DNA of 64,000 bases from assembly GCA_026625185.1 (NCBI GenBank), contig CP113000.1, positions 2,043,124 to 2,107,123 on the forward strand. The letters run 5' to 3'. Below the pieces are notes generated by a model that saw nothing but the letters and a program-made list of their open reading frames with translations, was not told the origin of the DNA and ran no database searches. This stretch comes from Thermodesulfobacteriota bacterium (GTDB taxonomy: Bacteria > Desulfobacterota > WTBG01 > JAGOGO01). Position 1 is the first letter of the stretch, and each line of letters begins with the position of its first letter. The translations under genes and the position numbers were made by a program. Below are positions 7,283 to 34,760 of this stretch, in pieces.

Positions 7283-7440
7283 TAACGGCTTCGTAAAAAG
7301 TCCATATGCGGCGTTGCGCTGCATCCTCAGTCATTGCGGCGTAGAAGTAAAGTACGCCTCATTCTGTCGGATTTGCGTGCCTTGCATCTGAAGCTTTTTA
7401 CTGTGCCGTCTGATTTTTGACCTTTTACGGCTTCAACAAA
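7283..7440 (+). repeat. Interspersed intergenic repeat, family 1, copy 1. About 160 bp, 70 nt upstream of hypF.
   Basis: Shares ACGGCTTCGTAAAAAGTYCATMTGCGGCGTTSCGCTGCATCC ... GCGGCGTASARGTAAGTAMGCCTCATTCYGTCGGATTTGCGYGCCTTGCATCTGAAGCTTTTTACTGTGC(C)GTCTGATTTTTGAC with 33276..33536. An extended -10 (TGGTATAAT) lies just 5' of it. Confidence 0.5.
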
Positions 7441-7511
7441 GTTGTTGTTATTTTGTTTCCTTGTAAAAAATCGCAGAACATCATTAAAAATAGATTTGGA
7501 ATGTTACGATT

Positions 7512-9833
7512 ATGACTTTGATAAAGGATGCTTCACTCCCCATTGAACCAATAAAGCGGGCAAAGATTAGTGTGCGGGGAATTGTTCAGGGGGTGGGGTT
7601 TCGACCTTTTGTTTACCAGCTCGCCTCTAAACACGGTCTGAAAGGATGGGTGTGTAATACTTCTGGTGATGTAAAAATTGAAGTGGAAGGTTCGACTGAT
7701 TCTCTTCAATTATTTTTGGAGCAGCTTAAAACCAAGGCGCCGCCGCTCGCTCTGATTGAAGAAGTAAATCAACTTTATTTACCGCCCGATGGTTATCAGC
7801 GTTTTGAAATCCGAGAGAGCAATCCGGAAAAAGGTAAATACCAGCGCATTTCGCCGGATATCGCCACGTGCCCCTTGTGCCTGCAAGAAATACTAGACAA
7901 AAACGACCGGAGGTATAGCTATCCCTTTACCAACTGTACCAACTGTGGTCCCCGGTTTACTATTATCCAAGATATTCCTTATGATCGACCGGAGACTACG
8001 ATGCGAACATTTAAAATGTGCCCGGAATGTCAAAAGGAGTATGACAATCCTGTTGACCGGCGCTTTCACGCGCAACCCAATTGCTGTCCCACCTGCGGTC
8101 CGAAACTTGCAATCATTGATCAGGCCGGAAAGATGATTGCTTCTCAGGATCCGGTTCGTGATGTTTGCGTTTTACTGAAGCAGGGGAAGGTGCTTGCTTT
8201 AAAGGGGTTGGGCGGTTTTTTGCTGGCGTGTGACGCCACGAACGAACCGGCGGTAATCACTTTAAGACAAAGGAAAAAAAGACCCTTTAAACCTTTTGGG
8301 GTCATGATGGCTTCGCTTGAGGAGGTAAAGAAGTGTTGTTTGGTATCACCGGAGGAGGAGAAGCTTCTTTGCTCCACGAAAGCGCCCATCGTTTTGTTAA
8401 AACTTAAAAATAAAAGCGTGATCGCATCGTCAGTAGCTCCAAACCTAAACTACTTAGGCGTGATGCTACCGTACACGCCCCTTCATCATTTAGTGATGCA
8501 CGGGGTTTCATTGCCCCTGGTGATGACGAGCGGCAATCTTAGCGAGGAACCGATCGCCAAGGATAATGAGGAAGCGTTAAGGAGGCTGTCAGGAATTGCC
8601 GATTATTTTATTGTGCATAACCGGGATATTCATGTCCAGTTTGATGATAGTGTGACGATGGTCGAAAATAATAAACTCCAGGTCTTACGGCGAGCGCGAA
8701 GCTATGCTCCGGATCCGATCCGACTCCCTTTTCATGCTCAAGAAGTCTTAGCGTGCGGAGCGGAACTTAAAAATACTTTCTGTATCACCAAGGACGAGTA
8801 CGCTTTTATAAGCCAGCACATCGGCGACCTGGATAACCTTGAAACCTTTGGTCAATTTGAAATGGTGTTGGATCATTATAAAAAGCTTTTTCGATTAAAC
8901 CCCCGGATCATCGTCTGTGATCAACACCCCGATTATCTTTCCAGCCGGTATGCGCAAAAGCTTAAAACCGCGAATGATGATCTCAACCTAATTTCCGTCC
9001 AGCATCATCATGCTCACATTGTAAGCTGTGTTACTGAAAATAAAGTCGCGCCGCCGGTTTTAGGCGTTGCGTTTGATGGCACCGGGTACGGCGAAGATGG
9101 ATGCATCTGGGGAGGAGAGTTCCTTGTGGTTGATTATGGCAAATTTCAACGGCTCGGACACCTGGAATATATACCAATGCCGGGAGGGGAGAAGGCGATT
9201 AAAAAACCTTTTCGTATGGCCATAAGTTATCTTGCACAGCTCTCAGGCACACAAACCTTAAACCGACGGCTCGCATTTCTTAAAACCGTGGAGGAGAGGG
9301 AGTTGGAACTTATCAAAAAACAAATCGAAAAAGGAATCAACACCCCTTTAACCTCAAGTTGCGGTCGTTTGTTCGACGGCGTATCAGCTTTATTAAATAT
9401 CCGGAATGAGGTTGACTATGAAGGTCAAGCTGCGATAGAATTGGAAATGATTGCCGGTGAGGGGAAAGATACGGGGAAGAGATATCCTTTTGAAATTGGC
9501 GAAGAGAACGGAATAAAAATTGTGCGGCTTCAGAAACTTTTTGCGGCAATTCTTGAAGACGTTGATCATGGCGTTACTAAAACCGAGATATCGTCTTGCT
9601 TCCATCATTCAGTCGCCCACATGGTTGGCCGCATGTGCCAAAACCTTGCTCGAGATACAGGTATAAAAAAAATAGCGTTAAGTGGAGGGGTATTTCAAAA
9701 CCGACTACTTCTCAGGCTGACCTCTTTTTATCTTAAAAAAGCAGGGTTAAAAGTCATTATCCACCGGGAAGTCCCCACCAATGACGGGGGAATTTCCTTG
9801 GGCCAAGCAGTGATTGGTAATTTTATTGCTTAA
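7512..9833 (+). CDS. hypF: [NiFe]-hydrogenase maturation carbamoyltransferase HypF
   Basis: Acylphosphatase N-terminus (VRGIVQGVGFRPFVY), two CxxC-x18-CxxC zinc-finger pairs, a YrdC-like domain and a Kae1/HypF C-terminal domain. 773 aa. Confidence 0.9.
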   Translation: MTLIKDASLPIEPIKRAKISVRGIVQGVGFRPFVYQLASKHGLKGWVCNTSGDVKIEVEGSTDSLQLFLEQLKTKAPPLALIEEVNQLYLPPDGYQRFEIRESNPEKGKYQRISPDIATCPLCLQEILDKNDRRYSYPFTNCTNCGPRFTIIQDIPYDRPETTMRTFKMCPECQKEYDNPVDRRFHAQPNCCPTCGPKLAIIDQAGKMIASQDPVRDVCVLLKQGKVLALKGLGGFLLACDATNEPAVITLRQRKKRPFKPFGVMMASLEEVKKCCLVSPEEEKLLCSTKAPIVLLKLKNKSVIASSVAPNLNYLGVMLPYTPLHHLVMHGVSLPLVMTSGNLSEEPIAKDNEEALRRLSGIADYFIVHNRDIHVQFDDSVTMVENNKLQVLRRARSYAPDPIRLPFHAQEVLACGAELKNTFCITKDEYAFISQHIGDLDNLETFGQFEMVLDHYKKLFRLNPRIIVCDQHPDYLSSRYAQKLKTANDDLNLISVQHHHAHIVSCVTENKVAPPVLGVAFDGTGYGEDGCIWGGEFLVVDYGKFQRLGHLEYIPMPGGEKAIKKPFRMAISYLAQLSGTQTLNRRLAFLKTVEERELELIKKQIEKGINTPLTSSCGRLFDGVSALLNIRNEVDYEGQAAIELEMIAGEGKDTGKRYPFEIGEENGIKIVRLQKLFAAILEDVDHGVTKTEISSCFHHSVAHMVGRMCQNLARDTGIKKIALSGGVFQNRLLLRLTSFYLKKAGLKVIIHREVPTNDGGISLGQAVIGNFIA

Positions 9834-9853
9834 CAAAAGAAGGATTTCAGGTC

Positions 9854-10066
9854 ATGTGTCTTGCAGTTCCATCCCAGGTTAAGTCAATTGAGGGACCGTA
9901 CGCTGAGGTAGAAATTGGCGGCGTCTCCCGGAATGTGAGCATTATTCTCACTCCGGATGTTAAGGTTGGGGACTATATTTTGGTACATACCGGATATGCC
10001 ATTGGAGTGGTAGATGAGGACGAAGCTCAAGCAACGATAAAGCTGTTTAATGAATTAAGCGGATAA
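9854..10066 (+). CDS. hypC: Hydrogenase maturation factor HypC
   Basis: Starts MCLAVP, the conserved Cys2 HypC signature. 70 aa. Confidence 0.85.
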   Translation: MCLAVPSQVKSIEGPYAEVEIGGVSRNVSIILTPDVKVGDYILVHTGYAIGVVDEDEAQATIKLFNELSG

Positions 10067-11166
10067 TGATAAAATTTCTTGATGAGTACCGCGATCCGGA
10101 ATTGGCTCAGCGTTTAGTTGAGAAAATCCGTAACCGTGCTATCCGGAGTTTGAGGCTTATGGAGTTTTGCGGCGGCCATACCGTAGCGATCATGAAATAT
10201 GGTCTTCGCCGGCTTCTTTTTCCCCCGGTGGAATTGCTTTCGGGGCCAGGCTGTCCGGTCTGTGTTACGGCCAATGTCGACATTGATAAAGCAATCGCTT
10301 TAGCCCAAAAACCGGAAATAATTTTAACTACCTTTGGCGATATGCTCAAAGTGCCGGGCAGTTATTCCAGCCTCCAAAAAACAAGGGCTGAGGGCGGTGA
10401 TATAAGGATTGTTTACTCGGCGCAAGATGCTTTAGAGATCGCCCAAGGAAATCCGGACAAAAAAGTTGTCTTTTTGGGTATTGGTTTTGAGACCACTGCC
10501 CCTACCATTGCTGCCTCGATTCTTGAGGCTAAAAGCCGGGAGATCAAAAACTATTATGTCCTGTCCCTGCATAAACTCTGCCCCCCGGTGATCAAAGCGC
10601 TTCTTGATTCAGGAGAAACTAGACTCGACGGTATCATCCTGCCCGGGCATGTAAGCGCTATTATCGGCTCCTATCCTTATGAATTTATCCCCTGCGATTA
10701 TGGTATTGGCGGTGTTGTTGCCGGGTTTGAGCCTTTGGACCTTCTGCTGGCAGTGGAAATGCTTATCGCTCAGATCGAAAACCAAAAACCCACGATCGAG
10801 ATCGCTTACCGGAGAGGAGTTAAAACCGAGGGAAATAAAAGGGCACGGGAGATAATGGAAATGGTATTTGATATTACCGAGGCTAACTGGCGGGGACTTG
10901 GCCGGGTGCAGGCAAGCGGTCTCACGCTTAAGCGGGAATATCAAGACTTTGATGCTGAAGCTTCTTTTGTTCTGGAAGCAGCTCCGGCAAAAGAACCCGA
11001 AGGATGCGTGTGCGGAGAAATTCTACGGGGCATTAAAACGCCGCTCAATTGTAAACTTTTCGGCAAACAGTGCACTCCTGAACAGCCGGTTGGACCCTGC
11101 ATGGTTTCTTCGGAAGGTTCTTGCGCGGCTTATTATTTATATGGCGGGTCAAACAATGGAAGATAG
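10066..11166 (+). CDS. hypD: Hydrogenase maturation factor HypD
   Basis: CGGHT, GPGCPVCV and FETTAP motifs. The C-terminal Cys cluster is CxxC...C. Confidence 0.9.
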   Translation: MIKFLDEYRDPELAQRLVEKIRNRAIRSLRLMEFCGGHTVAIMKYGLRRLLFPPVELLSGPGCPVCVTANVDIDKAIALAQKPEIILTTFGDMLKVPGSYSSLQKTRAEGGDIRIVYSAQDALEIAQGNPDKKVVFLGIGFETTAPTIAASILEAKSREIKNYYVLSLHKLCPPVIKALLDSGETRLDGIILPGHVSAIIGSYPYEFIPCDYGIGGVVAGFEPLDLLLAVEMLIAQIENQKPTIEIAYRRGVKTEGNKRAREIMEMVFDITEANWRGLGRVQASGLTLKREYQDFDAEASFVLEAAPAKEPEGCVCGEILRGIKTPLNCKLFGKQCTPEQPVGPCMVSSEGSCAAYYLYGGSNNGR

Positions 11167-12160
11167 AATAATCCTTGCACATGGAAGTGGCGGAAAACTG
11201 AGCCATGACTTAATAAAAGATTTATTGCTTCGGGAATTAGGAAATCCTTGCCTGAACCTTTTAGATGATGCCGCCACTTTAACACTCAATGGCCGCCTCG
11301 CCTTTACTACTGATAGCTATGTGGTTAGTCCGCTTTTTTTCCCGGGAGGAGATATTGGGAAACTGGCAGTCTGTGGAACGGTCAATGACCTCTCGATGGT
11401 GGGGGCTATTCCTAAGTATGTGAGCCTTTCGCTGATAATCGAGGAAGGATTTTTATTAAAGGAGCTGAAAAAAATAATTTCCTCCATTCATACTACCGCG
11501 CAAAAAGCAGGAGTGGAAGTGGTTACCGGCGATACAAAAGTGGTTAATCGCGGATCAGCCGATAAGCTTTTTATCAATACCGCGGGTATCGGGATTATTC
11601 CTGATGGGGTGGAACTCTCCGGATCAAATGCCAAGATTGGCGATAAAATAATCCTGAGCGGTCCCCTTGGCGATCATGGGATTGCAATTCTTTGTCAACG
11701 GGAGGGCCTTAAGTTTAAAACGTCCCTTGAAAGTGATTGTGCTCCCTTAAACACGCTGGTCGCTGATATGTTAGAAGCATCAAAAGAGATTCACGTTCTT
11801 CGTGATCCAACCCGGGGTGGTCTGGCAAGCACGCTTAATGAGTTTGCCGAAAGTTCTAAGGTAGGAATAAAAATCGCGGAAGATAAAATACCCGTTAGGG
11901 ACGCCGTGCGGGCAGCTTGCGAACTTTTAGGATTTGATCCGCTTTACGTAGCCAATGAAGGGAAATTGGTGGCAGTGGTTTGTTCTCAAGCTGCAGAAAA
12001 AGTTTTGTCTAAGATGCAAAAAAACGAACAGGCAACTCAAGCAGCAATAATTGGTGAAATTGTGGCTGACCACCCTGGAAAAGTGGTCATGAAGACCCAG
12101 TTTGGCTCCTCGCGGATTATTAGTATGTTGGCAGGAGAGTTGTTGCCCCGAATTTGCTGA
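11156..12160 (+). CDS. hypE: Hydrogenase maturation factor HypE
   Basis: AIR-synthase-like fold starting MEDRIILAHGSGGKLS. The track ORF 10868..12160 is an upstream extension in the same frame that overlaps hypD. The start at 11156 overlaps the hypD stop by 11 nt. Confidence 0.8.
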   Translation: MEDRIILAHGSGGKLSHDLIKDLLLRELGNPCLNLLDDAATLTLNGRLAFTTDSYVVSPLFFPGGDIGKLAVCGTVNDLSMVGAIPKYVSLSLIIEEGFLLKELKKIISSIHTTAQKAGVEVVTGDTKVVNRGSADKLFINTAGIGIIPDGVELSGSNAKIGDKIILSGPLGDHGIAILCQREGLKFKTSLESDCAPLNTLVADMLEASKEIHVLRDPTRGGLASTLNEFAESSKVGIKIAEDKIPVRDAVRAACELLGFDPLYVANEGKLVAVVCSQAAEKVLSKMQKNEQATQAAIIGEIVADHPGKVVMKTQFGSSRIISMLAGELLPRIC

Positions 12161-12417
12161 AACAGTTTAAGAAAATTTACCTGATAGAATTTTTACAGGT
12201 TGTCAAAAAAAGTTATAATTCTTCTTTTCCCCGATCTTATTATTCCCGTCCATAGAACTTTCTCGCCTGATTTACTCCTTTTTTGTAAGGAACCTAGTTG
12301 ACATTTTACTTTTGAAAATTTGTTTAATAATTATCTCGTTATAAAGTAAAAAAATTAGAAAATGGAATTATGACCCGGTCTCGGGAAAAATGAAAATGAA
12401 GGAGAAAAAATAGGGAG

Positions 12418-12448
12418 AATTTTACTGTTAGGTATAAATTATGCTTGT
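12418..12448 (+). promoter_or_regulatory. Conserved promoter-like motif AATTTTACTGTTAGGTATAAATTATGCTT upstream of the fdh operon. It has sigma-54-like GG-N10-GC spacing and alternatively reads as a -10-like GGTATAAA.
   Basis: Nearly identical to 22106..22136 upstream of the hydrogenase operon. GG and GC are 10 nt apart, as in TGGCAC-N5-TTGCW. Confidence 0.35.
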
Positions 12449-12959
12449 TGGAAAATGCTTGTTGGGGAAAAGAACAAAGCTGACACTGGATTTGGGTAAA
12501 TAATTAATCCGGAGTTGGCACATAGTCAAAGCGTAAAACGATGATTTTGTTTTCTGCCCGTGGTAAGGATGTCGGCTTCATGAAAAATCCCTCAGTACTG
12601 TCATTTTGGGCAACTTGACGATTTTTTTTATAAAACTTGTAAAAAGGATAAGGTTTCTTCCCGCAGCCGAAAAACCAGGGTCAGCAAAATCGGACTTTTT
12701 GCGAAGCTGTCGAGGGTAATTAATTTGGGAAAAATATGGGGCAGGGGTAGAGATTTCTTTGAATGCGGTAAAATTTATGATAACCTCGCCTACCAAGTTA
12801 AGTATTGCAGTTGAATAGAGCCATTAAGAGACAAAGTATAAAGAAGTCACTTTCGATAACCACCGATAAACCGAGAGAAAATTCGATTTATTAAGTGATA
12901 CTAATTTTTTTATATTTTTATAGTTCACTCTGATTCCAGGTAAAAAAAGGAGTTTAATT

Positions 12960-15659
12960 GTGCAAGAAATTAAGTTCACCATCAATGGAAAAGATGTGAC
13001 AGGGGGAAAGGGCCAAACTATTCTTGAGATTGCTTTGAAAAATGGATTTGATATCCCATACTTATGTTATCATCCCAAGATCAGCAAAACCGGTGCTTGT
13101 CGTATGTGTATTGTTCGGGTTAATGAGGTAATGTTAAAAACAGCCTGCACAGAGCCGGCAATGGAGGGGATGAAAGTAATTACTGAGGATGAAGAGATAA
13201 TAAAAATAAGAAAGGGGATTTTAGAACTCCTTCTTGCCGAAGGCGACCATAATTGCCTTTATTGTGATGCCAATGGTGCATGTGAATTACAGACCCTTGT
13301 ACACCGATATAATATTGATCAGGTAGCTTACGAATATCCTAAACGAAACCGCGAGATTGATTATGAATCGAGTGAGGGTCTGAAGAGAAATGAAAACAGA
13401 TGCATCCTCTGTGGAAGATGTGTGAAGGCATGTGGGGAGATCCAGTTATCAAATGTGTGGAGTTTTACTGATAGAGGAGGTCATACTCACCTTACCTCAG
13501 GTTTATATGAAAAGATCGGGGATTCGAGTTGTGTTAAATGCGGCGCATGTGTTCAGTTGTGTCCCACTGGTTCCCTTTCATTCCAGACGGTCCTTGGGAG
13601 AGGTGAAAATTGGGAACTCACAAAGGAATCAAGCATCTGTATTTACTGCGGGGTTGGATGTAAGATTGACTACTATAAAAACAAGGAGGGTCTACTTGTA
13701 AAGACTATTGGTCATGATGATGGACCCAACCGGGGACATCTCTGCGTTAAGGGAAGATTTGGATTTGATTTTATTCAGAACGGAAAGAGATTATCAAAAC
13801 CCCTTATCAAGCGAAACGGTGTATTCGAGGAGGCAAGCTGGGATGAAGCCCTCGATCTTGTTGCCAGTAAGTTTATTGAGATAAAAGACAAGTATGGTCC
13901 TGATTCTATTGCTGCACTATCTTCAGCGAAATGCACAAATGAAGAGAATTATTTGATGCAAAAAATTATGCGGGCAGTAATCGGGACGAATAATGTAGAT
14001 CACTGCGCTCGTCTCTGACACAGCTCAACCGTCGCCGGTCTGGCGGCTGTATTTGGTTCCGGAGCAATGACTAACTCTATCCGTGAGGTGCCTCTTTCAG
14101 AAGGTTTTCTGGTAATAGGTTCCAACACCACAGAAAACCACCCGGTCATCGGTTCGATGATAATGAAAGAAGTGATTAATCAGGGCAAGAAGCTGATAGT
14201 AGTCGACCCCCGTGAGATTGAGCTTTCCCGATATGCCGATTATTATTTTCAAATCAAGCCAGGTACAAATATCGCGATCCTCAACGGTTTTATGCATGTG
14301 CTGATTAAGGAAGGAATTTTCAATAAAGAATACGTCGAGAAGCGGTGCGAAGGCTTTGAGGCGATGGCGAAAATCCTTGAGAAATATAACCCTGAATTTG
14401 TCGCAGAGATTTGCGGAATTGATAATCCGGAAGATATTGTTAAAGCAGCGCGTCTCATGGCGCAGCTAAAACCTATGGCTCTCTATTATGCAATGGGGAT
14501 TACCCAGTTTGTCTCAGGGGTAAATGGCGTAAAGTCTACGGCAAACCTTCAGATGCTCCTCGGTAATTTAGGCATCCCGGGTGGAGGAGTTAATCCCTTG
14601 CGGGGACAGAATAATGTGCAAGGCGCATGCGATATGGGCGCGCTTAATGCGGTGTATCCCGCATATCAACCGGTTGCAAGTGAGGAGAATAAAGAAAAGT
14701 TTGAAAAGGCATGGGGTGTTTCAGGATTGCCTACCAAACCGGGTCTTACCATAGTTGAGATGTTTAATGCTGCAGTTGCCGGAAATTTAAAGGCAGTATA
14801 TGAGATGGGCGAGAACCCTGTGATGTCCGATCCCAATCAACACCATGTGATTGAAGCGCTTGAAGCTCTGAATTTTTTTGTTGTTCAGGATATTTTTTTT
14901 ACGGAGACAGCCCAGTATGCTGATGTGGTATTACCGGCATGTTCGTTTCTCGAAAAAGAGGGAACGGTAACCAATACCGAGAGAAGGATTCAACCCATGC
15001 ACAGGGTGCTTCCGCCCTGGGGTGACGCGAGGGATGATTGGTGGATCACCATGCAGATAGCCAATAGAATGGGCGCACAATGGGATTATAAAAAGCCTGA
15101 GGATATCTTTGAGGAGATAAGGATGGTTACTCCCTCCTATGCGGGAATCACGTATGAAAGGGTTGAGAAGGAACTGATACAGTGGCCATGCCCTGCGAAA
15201 GATCATCCGGGAACACAGTATCTGCACAAGGAAAAGTTTTCACGGGGACTTGGTTTACTTACGGGGATAGATTATACCCCGCCGGCAGAAGAAACCGACA
15301 CTGACTATCCTGTAATCCTGACGACCGGACGTATCCTCGAACATTTTCATACCGGAACCATGACCAGAAACTCAAAAATTCTTGATGAGATTGTGCCTGA
15401 GGGATTTGTGGAAATTCATCCCAACGATGCAAAAATTTATAACATCACGGATGGCGAAGTTATATCTATATCTTCGAGGAGGGGTAGCATCAGAATTAGG
15501 GCAAGGGTTACGGATAGGTCGAAACCCAATGTGGTTTTTATTCCATTTCATTTCTTCGAAGCGGCTGCGAACGAACTGACTATAGATGCTCTTGATCCGA
15601 CATGTAAGATCCCGGAGTACAAAGTGTGCTCTTGCAAGATTGAAAAAATTTATCTGTAA
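12960..15659 (+). CDS. fdhA: Formate dehydrogenase alpha subunit, a selenocysteine-containing molybdopterin enzyme with an N-terminal 2Fe-2S/4Fe-4S NuoG-like domain. Single gene read through the in-frame TGA at 14016..14018.
   Basis: The track splits it into 12960..14018 and 14067..15659 in the same frame. The sequence around the TGA reads [31 protein letters not shown], matching the FdhF active-site context CARV-U-HGPSVAGL. The N-terminus has ferredoxin-type Cys clusters. The C-terminus is MopB_CT-like. GTG start with an AAGGAG RBS. Confidence 0.85.
14016..14060 (+). promoter_or_regulatory. Sec codon (UGA) plus downstream SECIS-like hairpin GUCGCC-GGUCU-GGCGGC
   Basis: The hairpin starts about 13 nt 3' of the UGA. 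The GGUCU apical region resembles the E. coli fdhF SECIS loop. Confidence 0.5.
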
Positions 15660-18551: not shown

Positions 18552-19312
18552 ACGTACTTTCCTGCAATTTAGTCACTTAGTTGTGCGATAAGACTTTCTT
18601 TTTCATAGATGATTGCCTTTATCGCATCCCCGATAGAAATTAATCCAACCAACTTATTTTTGTCAAAAACAGGTAGATGTCTTACATGCTTACCCGTCAT
18701 AAGCACCATGCATTCTTCAACGGTGTTTTCAGGTTTTACAATGAGCGGAGGTGAGGTCATGATTTCTTGAACGAGGGTATCTCTTGACGTTCTCCCTTTC
18801 AGAATAATCTTCCTCGCGTAATCTCGTTCTGAGACGATACCGATTATCTTTCCCTTTTCTATAACTACTAAAGCCCCGATGTCCTTTTCCCCCTTGATAT
18901 GCAGTGCCTCAAACACCGTGGCAGTTGGTGAGATTGACCAGACCTCATTTTTTTTTCTCTTTCAGAATGTCGTTGACGGTTTTCATAATTTGCCTCCTTC
19001 TCAAAAAAATATTGTTATATTGTCAAGATGTTTTGCAGTCATTATTAAGTCCATCGGGCGATACACATATTAAAAACCTAAAAAAGTACCTCCGCGCAAA
19101 AAAGTATTTTATTTTAAAAACTTACCTATCTTAAAATCATTGCTTTACGGAGTTTATTTTTCAAGTCAGATTTTTTTACAGAACCTCAAACAAGAGGTCC
19201 TTAAAATGTTTGCATTTTTTCCCTATTTTGCTCGAAGACCTTAGTTTTTTATGCAAAAGATGATTTTATAGGGTGGAAAAAATATTGTTTTTTTGTATTC
19301 TTAAAATAAAAA
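18552..19312. repeat. Segmental duplication, copy 1: the 3' end of the CBS gene plus its about 300-bp upstream AT-rich region
   Basis: 18552..18660 aligns with 21650..21740 and 19025..19312 aligns with 21770..22092, at roughly 80-85% identity. Confidence 0.6.
18569..18916 (-). CDS. CBS-pair domain protein
   Basis: Two CBS motifs (IMTSPPLIVKPENTV..HLPV and KLVGLISIGDAIK). On the minus strand upstream there is TTGACA..., a GGAGG RBS, then the ATG. Confidence 0.75.
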   Translation of the reverse strand: MFEALHIKGEKDIGALVVIEKGKIIGIVSERDYARKIILKGRTSRDTLVQEIMTSPPLIVKPENTVEECMVLMTGKHVRHLPVFDKNKLVGLISIGDAIKAIIYEKESLIAQLSD

Positions 19313-21649: not shown

Positions 21650-22092
21650 CAATTTAGTCGCTTAGTTGTGTGAGAAGACTCTCTTGTTCAGAAATGATTG
21701 TTTTTTTTATTACCTCCCCAATAGAAATTAATCCACCTAACTTTTGTTTTCTTTATTTTCAATAGTCATTAATAAGCCCATCAGTCGAAACGCATATTAA
21801 AAACCTAAAAAAATACCCCCGCGCAAAAAGTATTTTATTTTAAAAATTTACCTATCTTAAAATCATTGCTTTACGGAGTTTATTTTGCTGGCCAGATTTT
21901 TTTACAGGATGTCAAATAAAAGATTCTTAAGATGTTTATATTTCTATTCCCCTTTTACTCGAAGGGATTATTTTTTTGCAAATGAAAATTTTGTTAGGGT
22001 GAAACATATTGATTTTTTTTGTATTATTAAGATAAAATTTCATTATGGTGAAAAAAATATTGTTTTTTTGTATTATTAAGATAATATTTAAT
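21650..22092. repeat. Segmental duplication, copy 2. It lacks the CBS gene body, retains about 90 bp of the CBS 3' end as a remnant, and has an internal tandem duplication near its end.
   Basis: Aligned by eye to 18552..19312. GGTGAAA(A/C)ATATTG(A)TTTTTTTTGTATTATTAAGATAA occurs twice in tandem at about 21995..22085. Confidence 0.6.
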
Positions 22093-26829: not shown

Positions 26830-28686
26830 ATGGATGAGCATCAGGAAATAAAAGCTCTTTTTTATGAGAAGGGAAGGGAAGAACCACTTTCGAAAGTTGG
26901 GTGGTGGATCCTGCTAAGGTGGATTTTGCTGGGCGTGACCATTCTTGCCGGCCTTACCGGCAACTTTCTCCTTAATTTAAAGCTTCCTCTCGCCCACATC
27001 TTATTGCTTTGTTGTTTAACTGCTTTTTTGAATGCCCTTCTCCATTATCAACTCTTCACTCTTAAAAAAGCTCCTTCCTTTGAGTTTAATCTCGTTGACC
27101 GGATTACGTATATTCAGTTTGGAACCGATCTCGTATTTATTGCCGGGATTTTTAACGATACCGGAGGAATTGCCAGCCCGTTATTATTTTACTTCCTTTT
27201 CCATGTTATCCTCAGTGGGGTTTTGCTGGAGCGATGGGCCTGCTTCCTTTATGTCAGTTTGGTGGCCCTGATGATTCTCACCTTATCCTTTTTTGAATTT
27301 ATCGGCTTTGTCCCCCATGTTTACAGGGCCTCGTTTATATCCAAAGACCTCCAGGATAACCCTTTTTTTGTTTTTTTTCTCCTTTTTTTCTTTCTCATGG
27401 TGCTTTTCATTTCCAGCTCCCTGATCTCTACCCTGCTTAAGCGTTTGCGAGAAAGAATATCGCAGCTCACCGAACTTGAAGAAAAATTGGAGGATACCAA
27501 CCACAGGTTGGAAACCCTAAATCTGATTGCTGTAAAAACTGCTACCACCCTTGGGCTTACCCCGAGGCTGGATTTGATTTGTGGGAGCGTCAGGGAGCTC
27601 ATGGGAGTTAAAGGAGTCCTTATCCGACTGTTGGACGAGAGGACGAATCGGCTTGAAATAGTGTCATCCTGTGGTTTAAGTGATGCTTATATTAAAACCG
27701 GCCCTATCGATTTGGACAAAAGCTATTCACGAACTTTAAAAGGAAAACCGCACGTCGTGTTAGATATTACTTCTGAACCTTCGTTACAGTATCCGGAAGA
27801 GATTAAGAAAGAAGGTATTGTGAGCATGCTTGCTGTTCCCTTGCAGGGGAGGGAAAAAGTCATCGGCACGTTGCGTCTTTTTACTAGTGAAAGAAGAGAA
27901 TTTACCCAAGAAGAAATTGACTTTGTTTCGGCCTTGGCCAGTCAAGGAGCTATCTCCATAGAAAATGCGAGGTTTTACGACGTGTTGAAGCGGCAAGATG
28001 AGGCAAAAAATGATTTTATTATTTTAATGACTCATGAGTTGAAAGCTCCCTTGAGCGCGATTCAGGGACTTCTGGATGTTATGCGTAAAGGTTACGTGGG
28101 AGCCATTACTGATAAACAAAAAGAACTGATTGAACGGATGCAAAAGCGAATTGACTCGGTTTTAGAGCTCTCGGCTGAATTGCTTGATATTTATAAATGG
28201 CAGTCAAAGGGGGTTATTGATATGGCATTGACGTCGGTATCCCTAAAAGATCAAATTCAAAAAGCAGAAGACCTTTTTAAACTAATTGCTCAGAAAAAAA
28301 GCATAAAAATATCTTACGAAGTGCCCGACGAGCAGGTAAATGTAAAAGCTGGAGAGGAAGAGCTGGAGAAAGTGCTCAATAACCTGATCAGTAACGCTAT
28401 AAAATATACGCCTATTGGAGGGAATATCTCCGTTGTCCTTAGATTGGTGGATAAGCAGGTGACCCTTCGCGTTAAGGATAACGGGATTGGGATTTCCTCC
28501 GAGGATGTGCCGAAGATATTTAATGAATTTTTCCGCACCAAGGAAGCAAAGGTGATTGATCCGGAAGGAAGTGGTTTGGGATTGCCTTTTGTGAAAAAAA
28601 TTGTGGAATCCCTTGGTGGTACGATCCGAGTGAAAAGCGAAAAAGGGCAGGGAACAGAATTTATGGTAACCCTTCCTAGAATTTAA
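26830..28686 (+). CDS. Sensor histidine kinase: N-terminal multi-TM domain, GAF domain, HisKA and HATPase_c
   Basis: Six or more hydrophobic helices in the first 190 aa. The GAF-like middle region is followed by an H-box (LMTHELKAPL), N-box (NLISNAIKYT) and G-boxes (DNGIGI, GSGLGL). Confidence 0.75.
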   Translation: MDEHQEIKALFYEKGREEPLSKVGWWILLRWILLGVTILAGLTGNFLLNLKLPLAHILLLCCLTAFLNALLHYQLFTLKKAPSFEFNLVDRITYIQFGTDLVFIAGIFNDTGGIASPLLFYFLFHVILSGVLLERWACFLYVSLVALMILTLSFFEFIGFVPHVYRASFISKDLQDNPFFVFFLLFFFLMVLFISSSLISTLLKRLRERISQLTELEEKLEDTNHRLETLNLIAVKTATTLGLTPRLDLICGSVRELMGVKGVLIRLLDERTNRLEIVSSCGLSDAYIKTGPIDLDKSYSRTLKGKPHVVLDITSEPSLQYPEEIKKEGIVSMLAVPLQGREKVIGTLRLFTSERREFTQEEIDFVSALASQGAISIENARFYDVLKRQDEAKNDFIILMTHELKAPLSAIQGLLDVMRKGYVGAITDKQKELIERMQKRIDSVLELSAELLDIYKWQSKGVIDMALTSVSLKDQIQKAEDLFKLIAQKKSIKISYEVPDEQVNVKAGEEELEKVLNNLISNAIKYTPIGGNISVVLRLVDKQVTLRVKDNGIGISSEDVPKIFNEFFRTKEAKVIDPEGSGLGLPFVKKIVESLGGTIRVKSEKGQGTEFMVTLPRI

Positions 28687-29117
28687 GCAAAGATAATCTA
28701 TTTATATTATTCCGTTTGAGATAATCCCCGGTTACCCCTGAGTTTTTATTTTTTACCTCGTTTTGTGAGTTCGTTACCCCTTTATAGATTTTTCATGACT
28801 TCCTGATTCAGTTTTCAGCAGAAAAGTTTCCCCAGTACGGAGAAGGACCAATAGGCGTGTTTTTCGTTTAAAAAAGATGAAAAGTTTTTACAGGCTGTAA
28901 AAGTTGGAGAAAAATATTTTCTTTTTCCTTTTAAAAAATTGTCGCAAGGTTTAATGAACGAAAAATGACTTTAGAACTTCAAAAAATAAACGAGGTTTTT
29001 TTTTATTGCCGCCTGAAAAACCTGATGAATTTATTGTTTTCCGTTAAAAGATGATCGGAAAGTAATTAACGAAAAAAATTAGTAATAATTAACCCCTGAA
29101 AATCGTGTTGCTTTATA

Positions 29118-29135
29118 TTGGCATAACCTTTGCTT
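29118..29135 (+). promoter_or_regulatory. Sigma-54 (-24/-12) promoter TTGGCATAACCTTTGCTT
   Basis: TGGCAT-N5-TTGCT with correct GG-N10-GC spacing. It is about 35 nt upstream of the receiver gene that heads the REC-HK-NtrC operon. Confidence 0.55.
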
Positions 29136-29167
29136 TCCCTTTAGATTAGTTTTTAAAGGTGGTGCTA

Positions 29168-29551
29168 ATGAAAGAAAAATTTACTCTTTTAATTGCCGAC
29201 CGCAATCGAAATATCCGAGATTTTTTACAACGAGAACTTATTACGGATGGCTATCGGGTTCTCTTAGCCTGTGATGGCCGGCAAGTATTGAAAATCATAG
29301 AGAACGAAACTCCTGATCTTTTAATCATTGATCTTGACATTCCCTATGCGGATGAATTAAGAGTATTTGAACGACTCCAATCCGCGCATCAAGTGATCCC
29401 GGTACTCGTGCATACCTTGCCCTCTGCTGAAACGATCAACGGGTTTGTTCAGAGAGCGGCCGGGTTTGTAGAAAAAGACGGTAATAATATAACTAACCTT
29501 AAAGATACTATAATTCAAGTATTACGGAAGCATTATCCTCATCGGTTTTAA
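29168..29551 (+). CDS. Standalone receiver (REC) domain protein
   Basis: FTLLIADRN..DLLIIDLDIP. The track ORF starts three codons earlier at a GTG. The ATG at 29168 has an AAAGG RBS. Confidence 0.65.
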   Translation: MKEKFTLLIADRNRNIRDFLQRELITDGYRVLLACDGRQVLKIIENETPDLLIIDLDIPYADELRVFERLQSAHQVIPVLVHTLPSAETINGFVQRAAGFVEKDGNNITNLKDTIIQVLRKHYPHRF

Positions 29552-29717
29552 GTTGTAAACGCATATCGAAAACAAAGGCTTATTTCTCACGAGAACAAAC
29601 AAGACAAACATATATTAAAATTAAGGAGATATACTTTCTCCGAAAAATACGGGCAGAGACTTTACCCCCGGCTACTCTTATGATAAACTTTAGCGGGGGT
29701 AGTTTTTTTAATGAAAA

Positions 29718-31166
29718 ATGGTTGTTTTCAAGGGGCATACGATGATTTTAAACAAGATTAGTCTGCGTGCCCGGGTTTTTTTGAATTTAATAGTTTTGTT
29801 AGGTATAATATTAGGCGGCGGCCTGGTGATGATTTGGTATACCTATAGTATAGAGGCGCTCTTTACCAATCTCATTGATAAGGATGTAGGGGCACTTCGG
29901 GCAGCAGGAGCTTTAGAATTAAATTTAGCAAATCAAAAAGGATTAGTCTCTTTTTATTTTCTTGACAAAGATTCGAAATGGCTTAGCCAACTTAACCGAT
30001 ATCGCCGGAATTTTAAAACCGGGCTTTCTAAGGCAAAACAATACATTTTTAGTGACATTGATAAGGGGTATATTGACCAAATCGAGTCTGAATATAATAG
30101 CTACTTAAAGATTAAAGACCACGTGATTGAACTTTTCATGGCCCAGGAAAAGGAGGCGGCTTTAAAACTTAACCAGGATGCCCGGTTAGAATTCTTTAAA
30201 ATAATGGAGTTGCTCAATCAATATAAAACGTTCTGTGAGGCCAGAATAAATTCGGCCCAAAATGAGAGCCGCACCCAGGCAGAGCGTCTGCGGATTATTG
30301 CAGTGACTGCTATGTCGATAGCGGTAATTCTCAGTGTTACCTTAACCGTTTTCTTTATGACCAAGATCCTTGATCCGCTTCGAAAGCTGGCCTTAGAAAC
30401 CGACCGGTCAGGCGAGTGGGGGAAACCAGGAAATGAGGTGATGGCTCTCAGTCATCAGGTTCGGGGCATTATTAAAGACATGGAAAAATTCGCTTTAGTG
30501 GGTAATCTTGCTGCCGGGGTTGCTCACAGTATTCGAAATCCCCTTACTTCTGTGAAAATGCGCCTTTTCTCCTTGGAGCGCAACCTCGAACTTTCTCTCA
30601 CCCAAAAAGAAGATTTCGCAGTTGTTTCCGAGGAGATTCGTCATATTGACACTATTGTTCAGAATTTTCTTGAATTTTCACGTCCACCGAAACTCAAAAT
30701 GCAGATGGTGAGCCCTTCTGATATCGTGGACAATGCTCTCCAGCTTCTCCGTCACCGGGTCGAAGCTTATGAGGTGACCATTACCGTGAATCGACAAAAA
30801 AAACTACCGGAGATCCTGGCTGATCCGGAACAGTTAAAAGAGGTAATGGTTAATTTAATTGTCAATGCCTGTGAGGCTATGGTGAGTGGCGGTTCCATCA
30901 TGATTTCGGAGGAAGAGATTGAAAGGAAGGATTTGAGTAGAATCCTGGTGCTTACCCTGAGTGATAATGGGCCGGGCATTCCGACATCGATCCAGGAAAA
31001 AGTATTTCAACCTTTTTTTAGTTGTAAAGAAGAAGGTACCGGGCTAGGATTAACCATTGCCGAAAGGATTGTGACCGAACATGGAGGATGGCTGGATTTG
31101 CAATCCCGCGAAGGGGAAGGGGCAAGGTTCATCATTAACCTCCCGATAGCCAAAGGGGAACAATGA
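29718..31166 (+). CDS. Sensor histidine kinase (NtrB/AtoS-like: TM, sensor/HAMP, HisKA, HATPase_c)
   Basis: N-terminal TM helix and a second TM at about residue 200. H-box AAGVAHSIRNPL, N-box NLIVNACEAM, DNGPGI and GTGLGL. Confidence 0.75.
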   Translation: MVVFKGHTMILNKISLRARVFLNLIVLLGIILGGGLVMIWYTYSIEALFTNLIDKDVGALRAAGALELNLANQKGLVSFYFLDKDSKWLSQLNRYRRNFKTGLSKAKQYIFSDIDKGYIDQIESEYNSYLKIKDHVIELFMAQEKEAALKLNQDARLEFFKIMELLNQYKTFCEARINSAQNESRTQAERLRIIAVTAMSIAVILSVTLTVFFMTKILDPLRKLALETDRSGEWGKPGNEVMALSHQVRGIIKDMEKFALVGNLAAGVAHSIRNPLTSVKMRLFSLERNLELSLTQKEDFAVVSEEIRHIDTIVQNFLEFSRPPKLKMQMVSPSDIVDNALQLLRHRVEAYEVTITVNRQKKLPEILADPEQLKEVMVNLIVNACEAMVSGGSIMISEEEIERKDLSRILVLTLSDNGPGIPTSIQEKVFQPFFSCKEEGTGLGLTIAERIVTEHGGWLDLQSREGEGARFIINLPIAKGEQ

Positions 31167-32593
31167 GCAATATATTGATCGTTGACGATGATTTTAATTT
31201 GCGACAGAGTTTTGAAAAGATTCTGGCAGAAGAAGGTCATGTGGTCTTGTCTGCCTGTACGGGTGAAGCGGGAATTGAGGTGATTAAAAAACGTATCCCT
31301 GAATTGGTGATCATGGATATACGCCTGCCCGGGATGAATGGCCTGGAAGCGTTCCGGACAATTCGGGATATTGACTCTAAGATTCCGGTGATCGTTATGA
31401 CTGCCTTTGGGACCACGGAAACAGCGATTGAAGCTACCAAACTGGGGGCATTCGACTATATGCTCAAACCGTTTGAAATTCCCGCAATGCTTAATTTAAT
31501 TGATCAAGCGCTTGAGGCAGGGAAGTTTGTTCGTTCCAAAGTGGAGATGGATGGTTACCCAGCTCCCGGAGCTTCAGAGACTATCATCGGAAAACATCCT
31601 CTGATGCAGGATTTGTATAAAGCGATTGGCCGGGTGGCTTCAACTGATGCCACCGTTTTAATCCGCGGTGAATCAGGAACCGGAAAGGAGTTGGTTGCGC
31701 GCGCTGTTTACCAGCACAGCCTCCGGGTCAATAAACCTTTTTTGGTTATTAATTGTGTGGCCATACCGGAAACACTGCTCGAAAGTGAGCTTTTTGGGTA
31801 TGAAAAAGGAGCGTTCACCGGGGCGATAAATCGCCGGGTTGGGAAGATTGAACAGGCCCATGGTGGAACTCTGTTCCTTGATGAGATCGGCGATATGCCT
31901 TTAAGCATTCAGGCTAAAATATTGCGTCTTCTCCAAGAGCGAAGCATCGAACGTCTGGGGGGTCGAGAACCTATTCCGGTTGACGTTCGGATACTTGCTG
32001 CTACCAACAGGGATTTAGAGGCGGCTCTGACCGAGGGTCGTTTCCGGGAAGATCTTTATTATCGTCTTAAAGTGGTTACCCTGTGGCTCCCCCCGCTTCG
32101 TGATCGGAAAAGCGATGTTCCGTTGCTTGCGGAATATTTTCTTTCCCGGTTTGCCAAAGGAATGAAGATTAATAACTTAGGCTTGTCGGATGAGGTAAAA
32201 AACACTCTGACTAACTACCAGTGGCCGGGAAATGTTCGGGAGTTGAGCAATACCATTCAAAAAGCATTGATTTTTAATCGGGGGGGGCCGATCCGGCAGG
32301 AAGAAATCTCCCAGGCCCTTCATGGTGAGGGGATGAAAAAGGATGTCGCTGACCAATCAGCGATGGAGACGATTCGACAATGGGTGCGGCAAAACCTGGT
32401 TTCTGGCATGAATGAGAATATGTTTGATTATTGTATGGAGCACTTTGCGAGCGTCCTAATAAGCGAAGCTCTTTCGATCACGAGTGGTAATCGTGTCCGG
32501 GCGGCTAAAGTTCTCGGCCTTTCTCGTCCGACCCTCCAGTCTAAAATTGAAAAATATAAAATCAAAATCGAGACTTCAATAAAAAATAATTAA
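31163..32593 (+). CDS. Sigma-54-dependent response regulator (NtrC family: REC, AAA+ sigma-54 activator, Fis-type HTH)
   Basis: REC domain with DIRLPGMNG. Walker [15 protein letters not shown] motif (EKGAFTGA). C-terminal HTH with [15 protein letters not shown]. Confidence 0.85.
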
Positions 32594-32774
32594 ACCTGTT
32601 TTGCAGTAAAGGATTAACCGAAAAAGGAATGAAGATAGAGGAGGTAAGATAAAAAAGAGGGAGGCTTCGTGTAAACGAGTGGGTTGATTTCATAAAACAA
32701 ACCCTTTGATCAAGCATGTCCTATGATCTGATCACTGGTTTAGAAGGACAGAGGATAGAACCTATCCTTCTCCC

Positions 32775-33175
32775 AGACAGTGTCATTCCCCGATTTAATC
32801 GGGGAATCCAGTTATTAACTCCTCATGCAAATCCTTCCAATTCGGATTTACCTTTTCAATAAAATCGATTTTCATGCGCGGTTATATTTTTTCAGTCTTT
32901 TCTCTCTTCTGATAGCATAAAATTGCTCATAATATATCAGCTTATCAACCCCATATCTTTCTGTAAATTATTCGACTAATTTATTCTTATGCTCCCATGC
33001 TTGCTTTATTAAGTTTGAAGTTACTCCTATATATAAAGTGCCATTCCGCTTGCTCTAAAATAGGTAGACATAAAAACCTTTTTCCATATAGCTCTGGATT
33101 ACCCGGTCAAGCCCGACAATGACTAATATCCTTATGCAGAATTACCCACTTGTTTACACGAAGATCCAAAATATA
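32775..33175 (+). repeat. Interspersed intergenic repeat, family 2, copy A. It is interrupted by an AT-rich insertion of about 204 bp at about 32878..33081.
   Basis: The flanks match 39566..39775. They include the 23-bp palindrome ATTCCCCGATTTAATCGGGGAAT, then CCAGTTATTAA..CAAATC(C/T)TTCCAATTCGGATTTACC(T/A)TTTCAATAAAATCGATTTTC, and after the insertion CATATAGCTCTGGATT...AATGACTAATATCC..TTACCCA(C/T)TTGTTTACACGAAGA. Confidence 0.5.
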
Positions 33176-33275
33176 AAGAAGACTACTTCCTGAACCCACC
33201 TGATTATCTCTTCGAAAAATCACAAATATCTTGACCCAATTTGTCTTATTTGGTAAATCAAAACCACACCAAATT

Positions 33276-33536
33276 GACGGCTTCGTAAAAAGTTCATCTG
33301 CGGCGTTCCGCTGCATCCCCTGCCCCGTTAAATGTTTGCTTCGAGAGGCAGAGAAGCTAACCTAAGGATTTCGGGTTCTGACTTACCGATCCCCAAAATT
33401 CATTATTTAACGGGGTGAATAATTGCGGCGTACAGGTAAGTAAGCCTCATTCCGTCGGATTTGCGCGCCTTGCATCTGAAGCTTTTTACTGTGCGTCTGA
33501 TTTTTGACTTTTTACGGATTCATCAAATTTCATAAA
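33276..33536 (+). repeat. Interspersed intergenic repeat, family 1, copy 2, upstream of ftsY. It carries an internal hairpin insertion of about 90 bp (CCCCGTTAAAT...ATTTAACGGGG) at about 33318..33410.
   Basis: Aligned by eye to 7283..7440. Confidence 0.5.
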
Positions 33537-33632
33537 AATATAAAAAGTAACGCCATGCTTTTGGCATGCTTGCACTAGTTTATTGAAAGAATGCTTCCAT
33601 GAGGCAATCGGCTTCATGACGCGGGAGGGTTA

Positions 33633-34655
33633 ATGGATAATAAATCGAAGTCAAAAGGTTTTTTGGGACGGTTTTCTTTTGGGAAAAAGGAGAACAATGC
33701 GGGAGAAAATAATAAAGAACATGACCAGGCCGGGAAGGAGAAGGCGGGTTTTTTTGAAAGGCTCAAATCAAGCCTCAGAAAAACTCATGAGATTCTGGTA
33801 ACTCCGGTTGATGAGCTGATTCTGGGCCGGAAAAAAATTGATGAAGATACTTTTGAAAGTCTTGAGGAAATTCTGCTTACCTCTGATGTGGGGCCGCAGA
33901 CGGCATTCAGTTTAATACAGAAAGTTCAGAAAAAGGTGGGCTATGGGGAATATGATAAAAAGAATCTCCTGCGGGAGTATTTAAAAGAAGAAATTCTTAC
34001 CATCCTGGCAGAGCGGCAGGATCCTCTCGATATTTCTCAGTCGAAACCCTTTGTCATCATGGCGATCGGGGTAAATGGATCTGGAAAGACCACCACCATT
34101 GCCAAGCTTGCTCATCAGATGCACTCTCAGGGAAAAAAAGTCCTTTTAGCGGCAGCAGACACCTTTCGGGCGGCAGGGATCGAACAGCTGGAGATATGGG
34201 GAGAAAGGGTGGGATGCGAAATGATAAAGCAGAAAAAAGGTTCCGACCCTTCAGCAGTTGCCTATGATGCGATCCATGCGGCCTTAGCCCGGAGTGTTGA
34301 TGTGCTGATTGTGGATACTGCGGGAAGGTTGCATACAAAAGTAAACCTGATGGAAGAACTCAAAAAGATAAAAAGGATTATGGGAAGGGAGTATCCGGGC
34401 TCTCCTCATGAGGTATTACTGGTGTTGGATTCTACTACCGGACAAAATGCGATTGCGCAAGCCACGATGTTTAAAGAAAACCTCGGCTACACGGGGATTG
34501 TGCTTACCAAACTCGATGGTTCGGCCAAGGGGGGGGTGATTGTAGGGATAAGTAATGAGCTTAAAATCCCCATCCGTTTTATCGGCATTGGGGAGAAGAT
34601 GGAAGATCTTCGGGAGTTTAATGCTCAGGAATTTGTGGAAGCGTTGTTTGAATAA
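33633..34655 (+). CDS. ftsY: Signal-recognition-particle receptor FtsY
   Basis: SRP54-type GTPase: GVNGSGKTTT, DTAGR, TKLDG. Acidic and basic N-terminal A-domain. Confidence 0.9.
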   Translation: MDNKSKSKGFLGRFSFGKKENNAGENNKEHDQAGKEKAGFFERLKSSLRKTHEILVTPVDELILGRKKIDEDTFESLEEILLTSDVGPQTAFSLIQKVQKKVGYGEYDKKNLLREYLKEEILTILAERQDPLDISQSKPFVIMAIGVNGSGKTTTIAKLAHQMHSQGKKVLLAAADTFRAAGIEQLEIWGERVGCEMIKQKKGSDPSAVAYDAIHAALARSVDVLIVDTAGRLHTKVNLMEELKKIKRIMGREYPGSPHEVLLVLDSTTGQNAIAQATMFKENLGYTGIVLTKLDGSAKGGVIVGISNELKIPIRFIGIGEKMEDLREFNAQEFVEALFE

Positions 34656-34657
34656 AC

Positions 34658-34760
34658 TTGACGGCTTCGTCAACCCCCTTAGAAAATTTTCTAATGGAAT
34701 TAAATGCCCCGGGTGAAATCTTTCTAACGGGGCGTCTGATTTTCGATTTTTCGCTGAAGA
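34658..34760 (+). repeat. Diverged partial copy of repeat family 1 immediately after the ftsY stop
   Basis: The 5' end shares GACGGCTTCGT and the 3' end shares CGTCTGATTTTCGA with the other copies. It begins with the palindrome TTGACGGCTTCGTCAA. Confidence 0.3.

Follow-up and report, generated by a model that had tools for sequence, protein, structure and literature searches.

Repeats upstream of hypF and ftsY very probably represent a family of MITEs in uncultured Thermodesulfobacteriota

The repeats located upstream of hypF and ftsY in the 64,000-nucleotide stretch of DNA analyzed here (the window) are very probably copies of a MITE family, that is, of a DNA transposon that is non-autonomous; it has become dispersed among sulfate-reducer-like, uncultured Thermodesulfobacteriota (formerly Deltaproteobacteria). 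Its architecture is a known one: the family belongs to a common type of selfish DNA rather than to the regulatory RNAs. As is characteristic of MITEs, the elements are shorter than ~500 bp, are non-coding, end in terminal inverted repeats, are flanked by a target-site duplication, and occur in multiple dispersed copies. A preliminary description of this DNA had considered a MITE-like nature, promoter donation, and small structured RNAs or 5' leaders. The first of these is borne out by the end repeats, the 6-bp duplication, empty sites, and unrelated interiors with the same ends, and the reclassification as mobile-element remnants that had been allowed for is essentially what resulted. The copies in the window, with their borders and flanking sites, are as follows.

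7284..7437, + strand: MITE copy 1, short form, 154 nt (nhmmer family profile, E=5e-47)
7284-7302: left end repeat of copy 1, AACGGCTTCGTAAAAAGTC, first base mutated
7419-7437: right end repeat of copy 1, GACCTTTTACGGCTTCAAC
7278..7283 and 7438-7443: decayed target-site duplication of copy 1, left GAAATT and right AAAGTT, 4/6 match
33276..33524, + strand: MITE copy 2, long form, 249 nt (nhmmer matches 2e-11 and 8.6e-30)
33276-33294 and 33506-33524: left and right end repeats of copy 2
33321..33417, + strand: optional 97-nt hairpin module of copy 2, basal stem CCCCGTTAAAT / ATTTAACGGGG
33271-33275 and 33525..33530: target-site duplication of copy 2, left AAATT (one base short) and right AAATTT
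12630..12711, - strand: decayed 82-nt miniature member, both end repeats GACAGCTTCGCAAAAAGTC ... CCTTTTTACAAGTTTTAT

The two copies reported previously are thus present, with borders refined to 7284-7437 and 33276-33524; their identity is 90% inside the element (137/152) and 85%, the value given earlier, once the flanks included at that time are counted. Both are insertions into intergenic DNA shortly upstream of plus-strand genes, as had been stated, with 75 nt between the end of copy 1 and the hypF ATG (7512) and 109 nt between the end of copy 2 and the ftsY ATG (33633). The hairpin insertion of roughly 90 bp noted in copy 2 was found to be 97 nt long and does fold as a long hairpin. In the window, the two end motifs gave 3 and 5 matches, vs 0.05 and 0.16 expected by chance. 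Two further members had escaped the preliminary description: the 82-nt member, which has a different short interior and no recognizable duplication left, and a long-form copy outside the window, ~3 kb before its first position (L148 6283-6553). Three intact copies occur in ~73 kb of the source genome, including DNA beyond the window start.

The element proper runs from GAYGGC to TTCATC, measures ~153 nt in its short form, and is bounded by imperfect 19-bp terminal inverted repeats, GAYGGCTTCGTAAAAAGTC ... GACTTTTTACGRNTTCATC; in a sister 133-nt family the two ends match each other perfectly over 19 bp. Copy length varies between 58 and 321 nt (mode 153-155 nt), and mini-forms of 58 nt (in L041) and 90-92 nt (in L119 and L117) were found elsewhere. 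Hairpin modules are optional and occupy three fixed internal positions, internal deletions occur too, and the size classes of ~58 to ~320 nt are explained by these two kinds of change. Comparison of the copies revealed no conserved reading frame, every frame being disrupted by indels and modules, and the element encodes nothing. Inward of the true right end, at a distance of ~27 nt, there is a second right-end-like segment, CTTTTTACTGTGCCGTC, at which some variants stop. The 97-nt module was found only inside family copies (12/12 BLAST hits), and a homologous 52-nt module of another subfamily, which shows two compensatory stem changes, was likewise found inside family copies in all hits but one, the exception being at a locus end. 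Modules as independent nested mini-elements were rejected, since the hits of both modules, apart from that one, lie inside family copies. Column conservation was 0.90 for the interior vs 0.96 and 0.87 for the ends, and hence the interior is about as conserved as they are, which counts against the MITE identification. The three module positions, the compensatory changes in the module stem, and the second inner right end are the features behind a reading that we regard as distinctly improbable, namely that a structured RNA, or single-stranded DNA, specified by the interior may aid the element's own transposition or regulate its transposase; the dispersed copies would then serve as many small RNA genes or decoys.

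By two pattern scans of public genomes and metagenomes, the element was recovered in 6 species-representative MAGs and more than 120 metagenome contigs among the matches listed. In both, the copies have sharp borders and unrelated flanks, and contigs assembled from short reads end within the element. The target-site duplication is 6 bp long and of the type AANNTT; it is perfect (6/6) at 43 of 78 unique sites, compared with a mean of 2.2 and a maximum of 8 in shuffled controls, and each of positions 1-5 was significant (p<0.0005). In a register test, the 4 nt before the 5' end equaled the 4 nt after ...CATCAA at 48/81 sites, with other registers giving 0-6. The imperfect duplications at both window copies (4/6 for copy 1, one base missing for copy 2) count against the MITE identification. 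Insertions are intergenic, only 4/79 falling within ORFs of 100 aa or more. The 133-nt family and a 143-nt element carry the same end repeats and AANNTT duplication around unrelated interiors, and their likeness to the present family does not extend beyond the outermost 12-22 nt on either side; several cargoes are therefore mobilized by one transposition machinery.

Orthologous sites in relatives show presence/absence polymorphism at both loci. The site upstream of ftsY is cleanly empty in relatives L138-L141, reading ...ACACC AAATTT CATAAG..., and copy 2 must be a recent insertion, as relatives whose FtsY is 94% identical lack it; upstream of hypF, relative L146 has an empty site. These empty sites also bear on the possibility that the repeats are vertically inherited, non-mobile small structured RNA genes or riboswitch-like cis-regulatory leaders, which we consider very improbable. 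High sequence conservation across species, a predicted multi-stem fold, and the position of the window copies upstream of genes would suit such RNAs, whereas flanking target-site duplications, empty orthologous sites, and the same ends on unrelated interiors would not. Furthermore, orientation relative to neighboring genes is unbiased (13, 8, 10, and 10 in four classes; 41 scorable sites), the genes next to the insertions are unrelated to each other, and no conserved promoter is found at a fixed upstream distance. The Rfam scan suggested earlier gave no match in the element with Rfam 15, either at the gathering threshold in the window or at E up to 10 in two element-carrying loci, and a tRNA/tmRNA scan found nothing. 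Together with sparse covariation, these results leave the structured-RNA and 5'-leader proposals without support.

In an alignment of 41 copies, 89% of cells in the predicted stems were paired and 7 pairs changed on both sides, a number equaled in 138/500 shuffles. Most prominent among the covarying pairs are those between the left end and the inner right-end-like segment, and the covariation, which is weak, would mostly be explained by co-evolving ends; compensatory changes in a few stems could hint at constraint beyond transposition. The hairpin TGCGGCG/CGCTGCA, proposed by eye, was contradicted (23/41 and 11/41 unpaired cells).

Donation of promoters by the element is not borne out. The TGGTATAAT reported to precede copy 1 is indeed present, and it forms part of a promoter-like site outside the element.

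7242..7270, + strand: host promoter-like site TTGAGA-17-TATAAT with TG extension (extended -10), 11/12

This is the sole promoter-like site, none having been found inside copy 1 or copy 2, and its sequence is also kept at the empty site in L146; the promoter therefore belongs to the host, and donation is not supported. Copy 1, just downstream of this site, probably lies within the hypF 5' UTR.

This location raises a reading in which the copies are MITEs with a co-opted interior, the RNA structure of which, in the hypF and ftsY 5' UTRs or in operons, would modulate mRNA stability, processing, or translation; RNA-level modulation has been reported for the Correia elements. We judge this reading unlikely. 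Copy 1 has a strong host promoter before it and the hypF start codon after it, both window copies share the orientation of the downstream gene, and another family copy is flanked by a response-regulator gene on one side and a histidine-kinase gene on the other. Single copies also fold better than shuffles (z ~ -2.9), and pairs 3-128, 5-126, and 46-89, as well as the module stem, show compensatory changes. However, the 41 scorable sites show no orientation bias, and the same sites in relatives do without the element; covariation events are few, those between the left end and the inner right end are also expected from co-evolving transposase sites, and numerous mismatches contradict the hairpin at alignment columns 25-30/34-39. 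Under the MITE interpretation, if expression of hypF or ftsY is affected at all, this would be a putative by-product of co-transcription.

We also considered a REP/BIME-type element or an IS200/IS605-derived palindromic element (PATE), which would be moved by a Y1 (HUH) transposase acting on single-stranded hairpins. The element is hairpin-rich, and one distant relative, L144, has a Y1_Tnp-domain gene near ftsY. However, neither REP/BIME nor IS200/IS605-derived PATE sequences are known to have terminal inverted repeats or target-site duplications, and here both terminal inverted repeats and a 6-bp duplication are present; moreover, elements of at least 153 nt with 19-bp end repeats are unlike 20-40-nt REPs. 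This origin is extremely improbable.

A shorter third copy had been described after ftsY (34658..34760), as had recurrence of a motif of the element in a 100-bp tandem repeat. The matching pieces at these places are given below.

34660..34670, + strand: left-end fragment of 'copy 3', 11 nt, GACGGCTTCGT
34733..34755, + strand: right subterminal-tail fragment of 'copy 3', ~23 nt, CGTCTGATTTTCGATTTTTCGCT
53727..53742 and 53827-53842, + strand: 16-mer GTCTGATTTTTGACTT, identical to the MITE tail, in both units of a 100-bp perfect tandem duplication

Two short end-like pieces thus exist in the region after ftsY, but a full derivative does not, and the nhmmer profile built from 41 copies did not detect the region. 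Directly before the left fragment stands AAACTT, a sequence compatible with the AANNTT target; the right fragment agrees with the canonical tail at ~21/23 positions with two 1-nt gaps (manual comparison) and lacks the terminal end-repeat bases. Part of the sequence between the pieces is also present in relatives without the ends, and the region is variable in relatives, with deletions. The recurrence in the tandem repeat was confirmed, and 0/100 shuffles gave any match to the 16-mer.

For the MITE family, a transposase supplied in trans would bind both ends and then excise or copy the element, which would be inserted at AT-rich, roughly palindromic AANNTT targets via a cut staggered by 6 bp, the repair of which would give rise to the 6-bp duplication. 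Because no mobilizing enzyme was found, the transposase step is one that we infer. A search of ~0.9 Mb of loci plus the window turned up no autonomous, transposase-encoding element bounded by these end repeats, which likewise counts against the MITE identification. End-repeat pairs 0.06-6 kb apart were only MITEs, no pair 0.4-6 kb apart had a matching duplication, and all unpaired end repeats proved to be more MITE copies or mini-forms. ORFs of at least 220 aa that clustered across loci were only housekeeping families (alanine dehydrogenase, radical SAM, GcpE), and no transposase domain was seen in the ten window ORFs examined. An end-repeat scan of viral contigs yielded 5 additional MITE copies and one probable chance match, a blastn search of a plasmid collection in distant mode gave no match to the element, and the end-repeat sequence string had no match in a literature text search. 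The ISDol1 group (ISNCY, Desulfococcus species), with duplications of 6-7 bp, is a candidate lead, but its reported end bases differ.

Several known systems resemble this family. Correia elements (CREE/NEMIS) of Neisseria are non-coding, ~100-160 bp long, and bounded by terminal inverted repeats (see PMC3184786 and PMC10969869). Similar size, lack of coding capacity, end repeats, and long and short forms differing by an internal segment are shared with them, as is an intergenic position, often between promoter and gene and hence co-transcribed. Correia elements differ in their 26-bp end repeats and TA duplication, compared with 19 bp and 6-bp AANNTT here; the sequences are not similar, the hosts belong to another phylum, and promoter, terminator, and RNase III effects are Correia features. 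Chunjie, a MITE from Geobacter uraniireducens Rf4, is 178-235 bp long; its end repeats measure 21 bp and its direct repeats 9 bp (PMC3184786). It is likewise a deltaproteobacterial MITE with variable length classes, intergenic or intra-operon positions, and a predicted stable RNA fold (PMC3184786), whereas the present family has a basic unit of ~153 nt, 19-bp repeats, and a 6-bp duplication, features that set it apart by the published description of Chunjie. Because sizes, end repeats, and duplication differ, it is not the Chunjie family and probably uses a different transposase. With IS-derived MITEs (RUP with IS630-Spn1, Nezha, and Pseudomonas R0/R2) it shares end repeats, target duplication, absence of an ORF, and inferred mobilization in trans; those have a known parent IS whose ends correspond to their own (the R0/R2 repeats are those of resident ISs), whereas none was found here in ~0.9 Mb of loci and the window.

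The family explains a class of intergenic repeats and of assembly breaks in MAGs of uncultured Thermodesulfobacteriota, and such repeats should not be annotated as small RNAs or riboswitch candidates. Its presence or absence at a site also serves as a clean marker for telling closely related populations apart. The transposition signature of the element, 19-bp ends with a 6-bp AANNTT duplication, is carried by at least three non-coding cargo families and should help to locate the transposase. Finally, the insertions at hypF, between promoter and start codon, and within a two-component operon, between its genes, lend themselves naturally to testing how expression depends on MITE RNA structure.

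We found that the repeat upstream of hypF and ftsY is well supported as a further family of bacterial miniature elements (MITEs), short non-coding mobile repeats: it displays end repeats, duplication, empty sites, common ends with differing cargo, and no coding capacity. The window, which belongs to a JGI metagenome contig of 1.6 Mb, has a G+C content of 43%, its nearest named relatives are metagenome-assembled genomes (MAGs) labelled Thermodesulfobacteriota, and MITE end motifs are much commoner in it than in shuffled sequence. The following features were located (window coordinates, except for the last):

7284-7437, MITE copy 1, upstream of the HypF gene
7512-9833, HypF gene, 3' of copy 1
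12630-12711, minus strand, decayed MITE member of 82 nt, both end repeats present
33276-33524, MITE copy 2, long form, upstream of the FtsY gene
33321-33417, hairpin module of copy 2, a 97-nt insertion
33633-34655, FtsY gene, 3' of copy 2
34660-34670, 11-nt left-end fragment of 'copy 3'
34733-34755, 23-nt tail fragment of 'copy 3'
L148 6283-6553, further long-form copy some 3 kb before the window begins, immediately 3' of a response-regulator stop codon and before a histidine-kinase gene

The two full copies of the preliminary description are real and align over their whole length, with 90% identity within the element; its figure of about 85% was reproduced when its flanks were counted in, and the insertion that it noticed in copy 2 does fold into a long hairpin. 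Its third copy, placed 3' of the ftsY stop, was retained only in part: the two end pieces are present, but there is no full copy; within the window, a profile built from 41 short forms matches only copies 1 and 2, and the sequence between the fragments is partly common to relatives that lack them. The L148 copy has an extra hairpin inserted into the otherwise invariant core, and intact copies number three within approximately 73 kb (window plus upstream stretch).

The element proper spans GAYGGC...TTCATC, with imperfect 19-bp terminal inverted repeats (GAYGGCTTCGTAAAAAGTC and GACTTTTTACGRNTTCATC), and is bordered by a 6-bp target-site duplication. Among the matches listed, the 4 bases 5' of the element equal the 4 bases 3' of ...CATCAA in 48 of 81 sites (0-6 in shifted registers), and a perfect 6/6 duplication occurs at 43 of 78 unique sites (shuffles: mean 2.2, maximum 8), and each of duplication positions 1-5 scored higher than any of 2000 shuffles. 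AANNTT is the consensus target; T at -8 and A at +8 are also favoured, though less strongly, so that it is roughly palindromic. A second segment resembling the right end, CTTTTTACTGTGCCGTC, is located about 27 nt inward of it and finishes with an exact complement of the left terminus; some variants, L031 and L041 among them, end at this inner position.

Two other elements have these end repeats and AANNTT duplications as well:

133-nt sister family, end repeats pairing perfectly over 19 bp: L058 519-651, L069 6107-6239, L071 1242-1374, L092 6504-6636, L095 3799-3931, L118 3174-3306, L123 6864-6996
143-nt third element: L100 7240-7382

Their interiors are unrelated, pairwise similarity being limited to the terminal 12-22 nt per end. 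Common ends with unrelated interiors would be the signature of several non-coding cargoes moved by one transposase.

Empty sites document the insertions. The ftsY-upstream site is empty in four MAGs and contigs (L138-L141; FtsY 94% identical), which read ...ACACC AAATTT CATAAG... where the window reads ...acacc aaatt[249-nt element]aaattt cataaa.... DATEXU01, a MAG from this group, has the MITE at another place (L006), so that the difference at ftsY reflects mobility rather than absence of the family. The hypF-upstream site is empty in L146 (HypF 82% identical), and L145 and L147 (86-89% identity) hold at this position an element with only the right end in common. The hypF insertion is thus older and has since been reworked, in keeping with the mutations at both ends of copy 1 and a duplication that matches at 4/6 positions.

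Outside the window, a 26-base gapped pattern from the 3' part of the element, scanned against species-representative MAGs, was found at 7 places in 6 of them (labelled Deltaproteobacteria, Thermodesulfobacteriota or Desulfobacterales), and a 20-base core pattern matched at least 120 metagenome contigs. All matches listed have identity above about 85-90%, sharp borders and wholly unrelated flanks, and fall into these size classes:

about 153-155 nt, 45 copies among the matches listed
about 207 nt, 16 copies among the matches listed, carrying a 52-nt hairpin module
175-181 nt, hairpin added in a different loop
250-280 nt, 95-97-nt module as in copy 2, with or without other modules
58-92 nt, deletion forms

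Length differs even at shared insertion sites in different samples: a 36-nt tandem unit is present three times in L013 7507-7767 and twice in L063 3024-3248, and L006 5459-5611 (155 nt) is reduced by internal deletion to 92 nt in L117 5941-6032; MITE size therefore still changes after insertion. Short-read contigs with ftsY break off within the element, as expected of a genomic repeat. Copies also occur on IMG/VR contigs (L132-L135, L137), one of which has a radical-SAM/B12-binding gene; these contigs, classified as viral, are a possible path for horizontal spread.

A structured RNA or 5' leader had also been proposed. The element has no match in Rfam, and the orientation classes relative to neighbouring genes number 13, 8, 10 and 10 (41 sites with callable neighbours, among the matches listed). 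The RNAalifold structure is rod-like, and covariation contributes little to it (-0.87 kcal/mol); in a hand-refined structure 89% of cells are paired and 7 pairs alter on both sides, a number reached by 138 of 500 shuffles. Covariation is clearest at pairs 3-128 and 5-126, which connect the left terminus with the inner right-end-like segment, and is there explained by co-evolving transposase-binding ends. A hand-proposed hairpin (alignment columns 25-30/34-39) was contradicted by the same structure test. In the module stem, subfamilies differ by two compensatory double changes (CCCCGTTAAAT/ATTTAACGGGG versus CCCGGTTGAAT/ATTCAACCGGG); the 97-nt and 52-nt modules were found in this MITE family only, and hence are optional domains, not independent elements. 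Among the matches listed, 4 of 79 copies lie within an ORF of at least 100 aa, and no reading frame is conserved among the copies compared.

Promoter donation was the other suggestion. The TGGTATAAT noted 5' of copy 1 is indeed there, within a promoter-like site at 7242-7270 (11/12, extended -10), and this site is kept at the empty L146 locus; no promoter-like site was found within copies 1 or 2. With a promoter that is the host's own and none found inside the copies, donation by the MITE is not supported. Copy 1 is plausibly co-transcribed with hypF.

Other repeats and features were observed in the window:

19037-19300 / 21764-22025, two-copy intergenic repeat family, unrelated to the MITE
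32773-32873 / 39565-39665, likewise
45225-45394 / 47144-47313, likewise
39903-39970, 40928-40974, 45544-45590, 47469-47543, both strands, intergenic arrays of 7-nt (A/T)AACGG(N)-like units
47353-47395, 49312-49354, 51928-51970, GC-rich palindromic repeats CCTCTCCCC(N)GGGGAGAGG, with a 35-nt tandem array at 51700-51911
49199-49280, plus strand, c-di-GMP-I riboswitch aptamer (56.6 bits; gathering score 35), the sole Rfam match in the window
53668-53867, 100-bp unit duplicated perfectly in tandem, with a secretin gene on one side and a minus-strand gene on the other

Copies within the three two-copy families are 83-90% identical, and these families were not found in the other loci compared. The 7-nt arrays flank two large ORFs without Pfam domains (43260-45221, 45599-47122), and units resembling the palindromic repeats are nested within some MITE copies (L049, L145). 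The earlier-noted recurrence of an element motif in the tandem duplication at 53.7 kb is an exact 16-mer match to the MITE tail, set in its own hairpin in each 100-bp unit, and is beyond chance. In relatives, a CheY-like response-regulator gene (140-148 aa; L139 1911-2289) lies between the sigma-54 regulator and ftsY; the window instead has about 510 nt of unrelated non-coding DNA (32655-33167) that holds one of the two-copy families (32773-32873).

A transposase would mobilize the MITE in trans, cutting AANNTT with a 6-bp stagger; no such gene was found in the window or in approximately 0.9 Mb of compared loci. In its way of working the element resembles Correia, Chunjie, RUP and other bacterial MITEs, but it stands outside those families. 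Correia elements duplicate TA, in contrast to the 6-bp AANNTT duplication here. Chunjie, with 21-bp end repeats and 9-bp direct repeats (PMC3184786), is set apart by description from the 19-bp ends and 6-bp duplication of the present family. No description of this 19-bp end repeat was found in the searchable literature, and the identification of the element as a MITE is useful for annotation.
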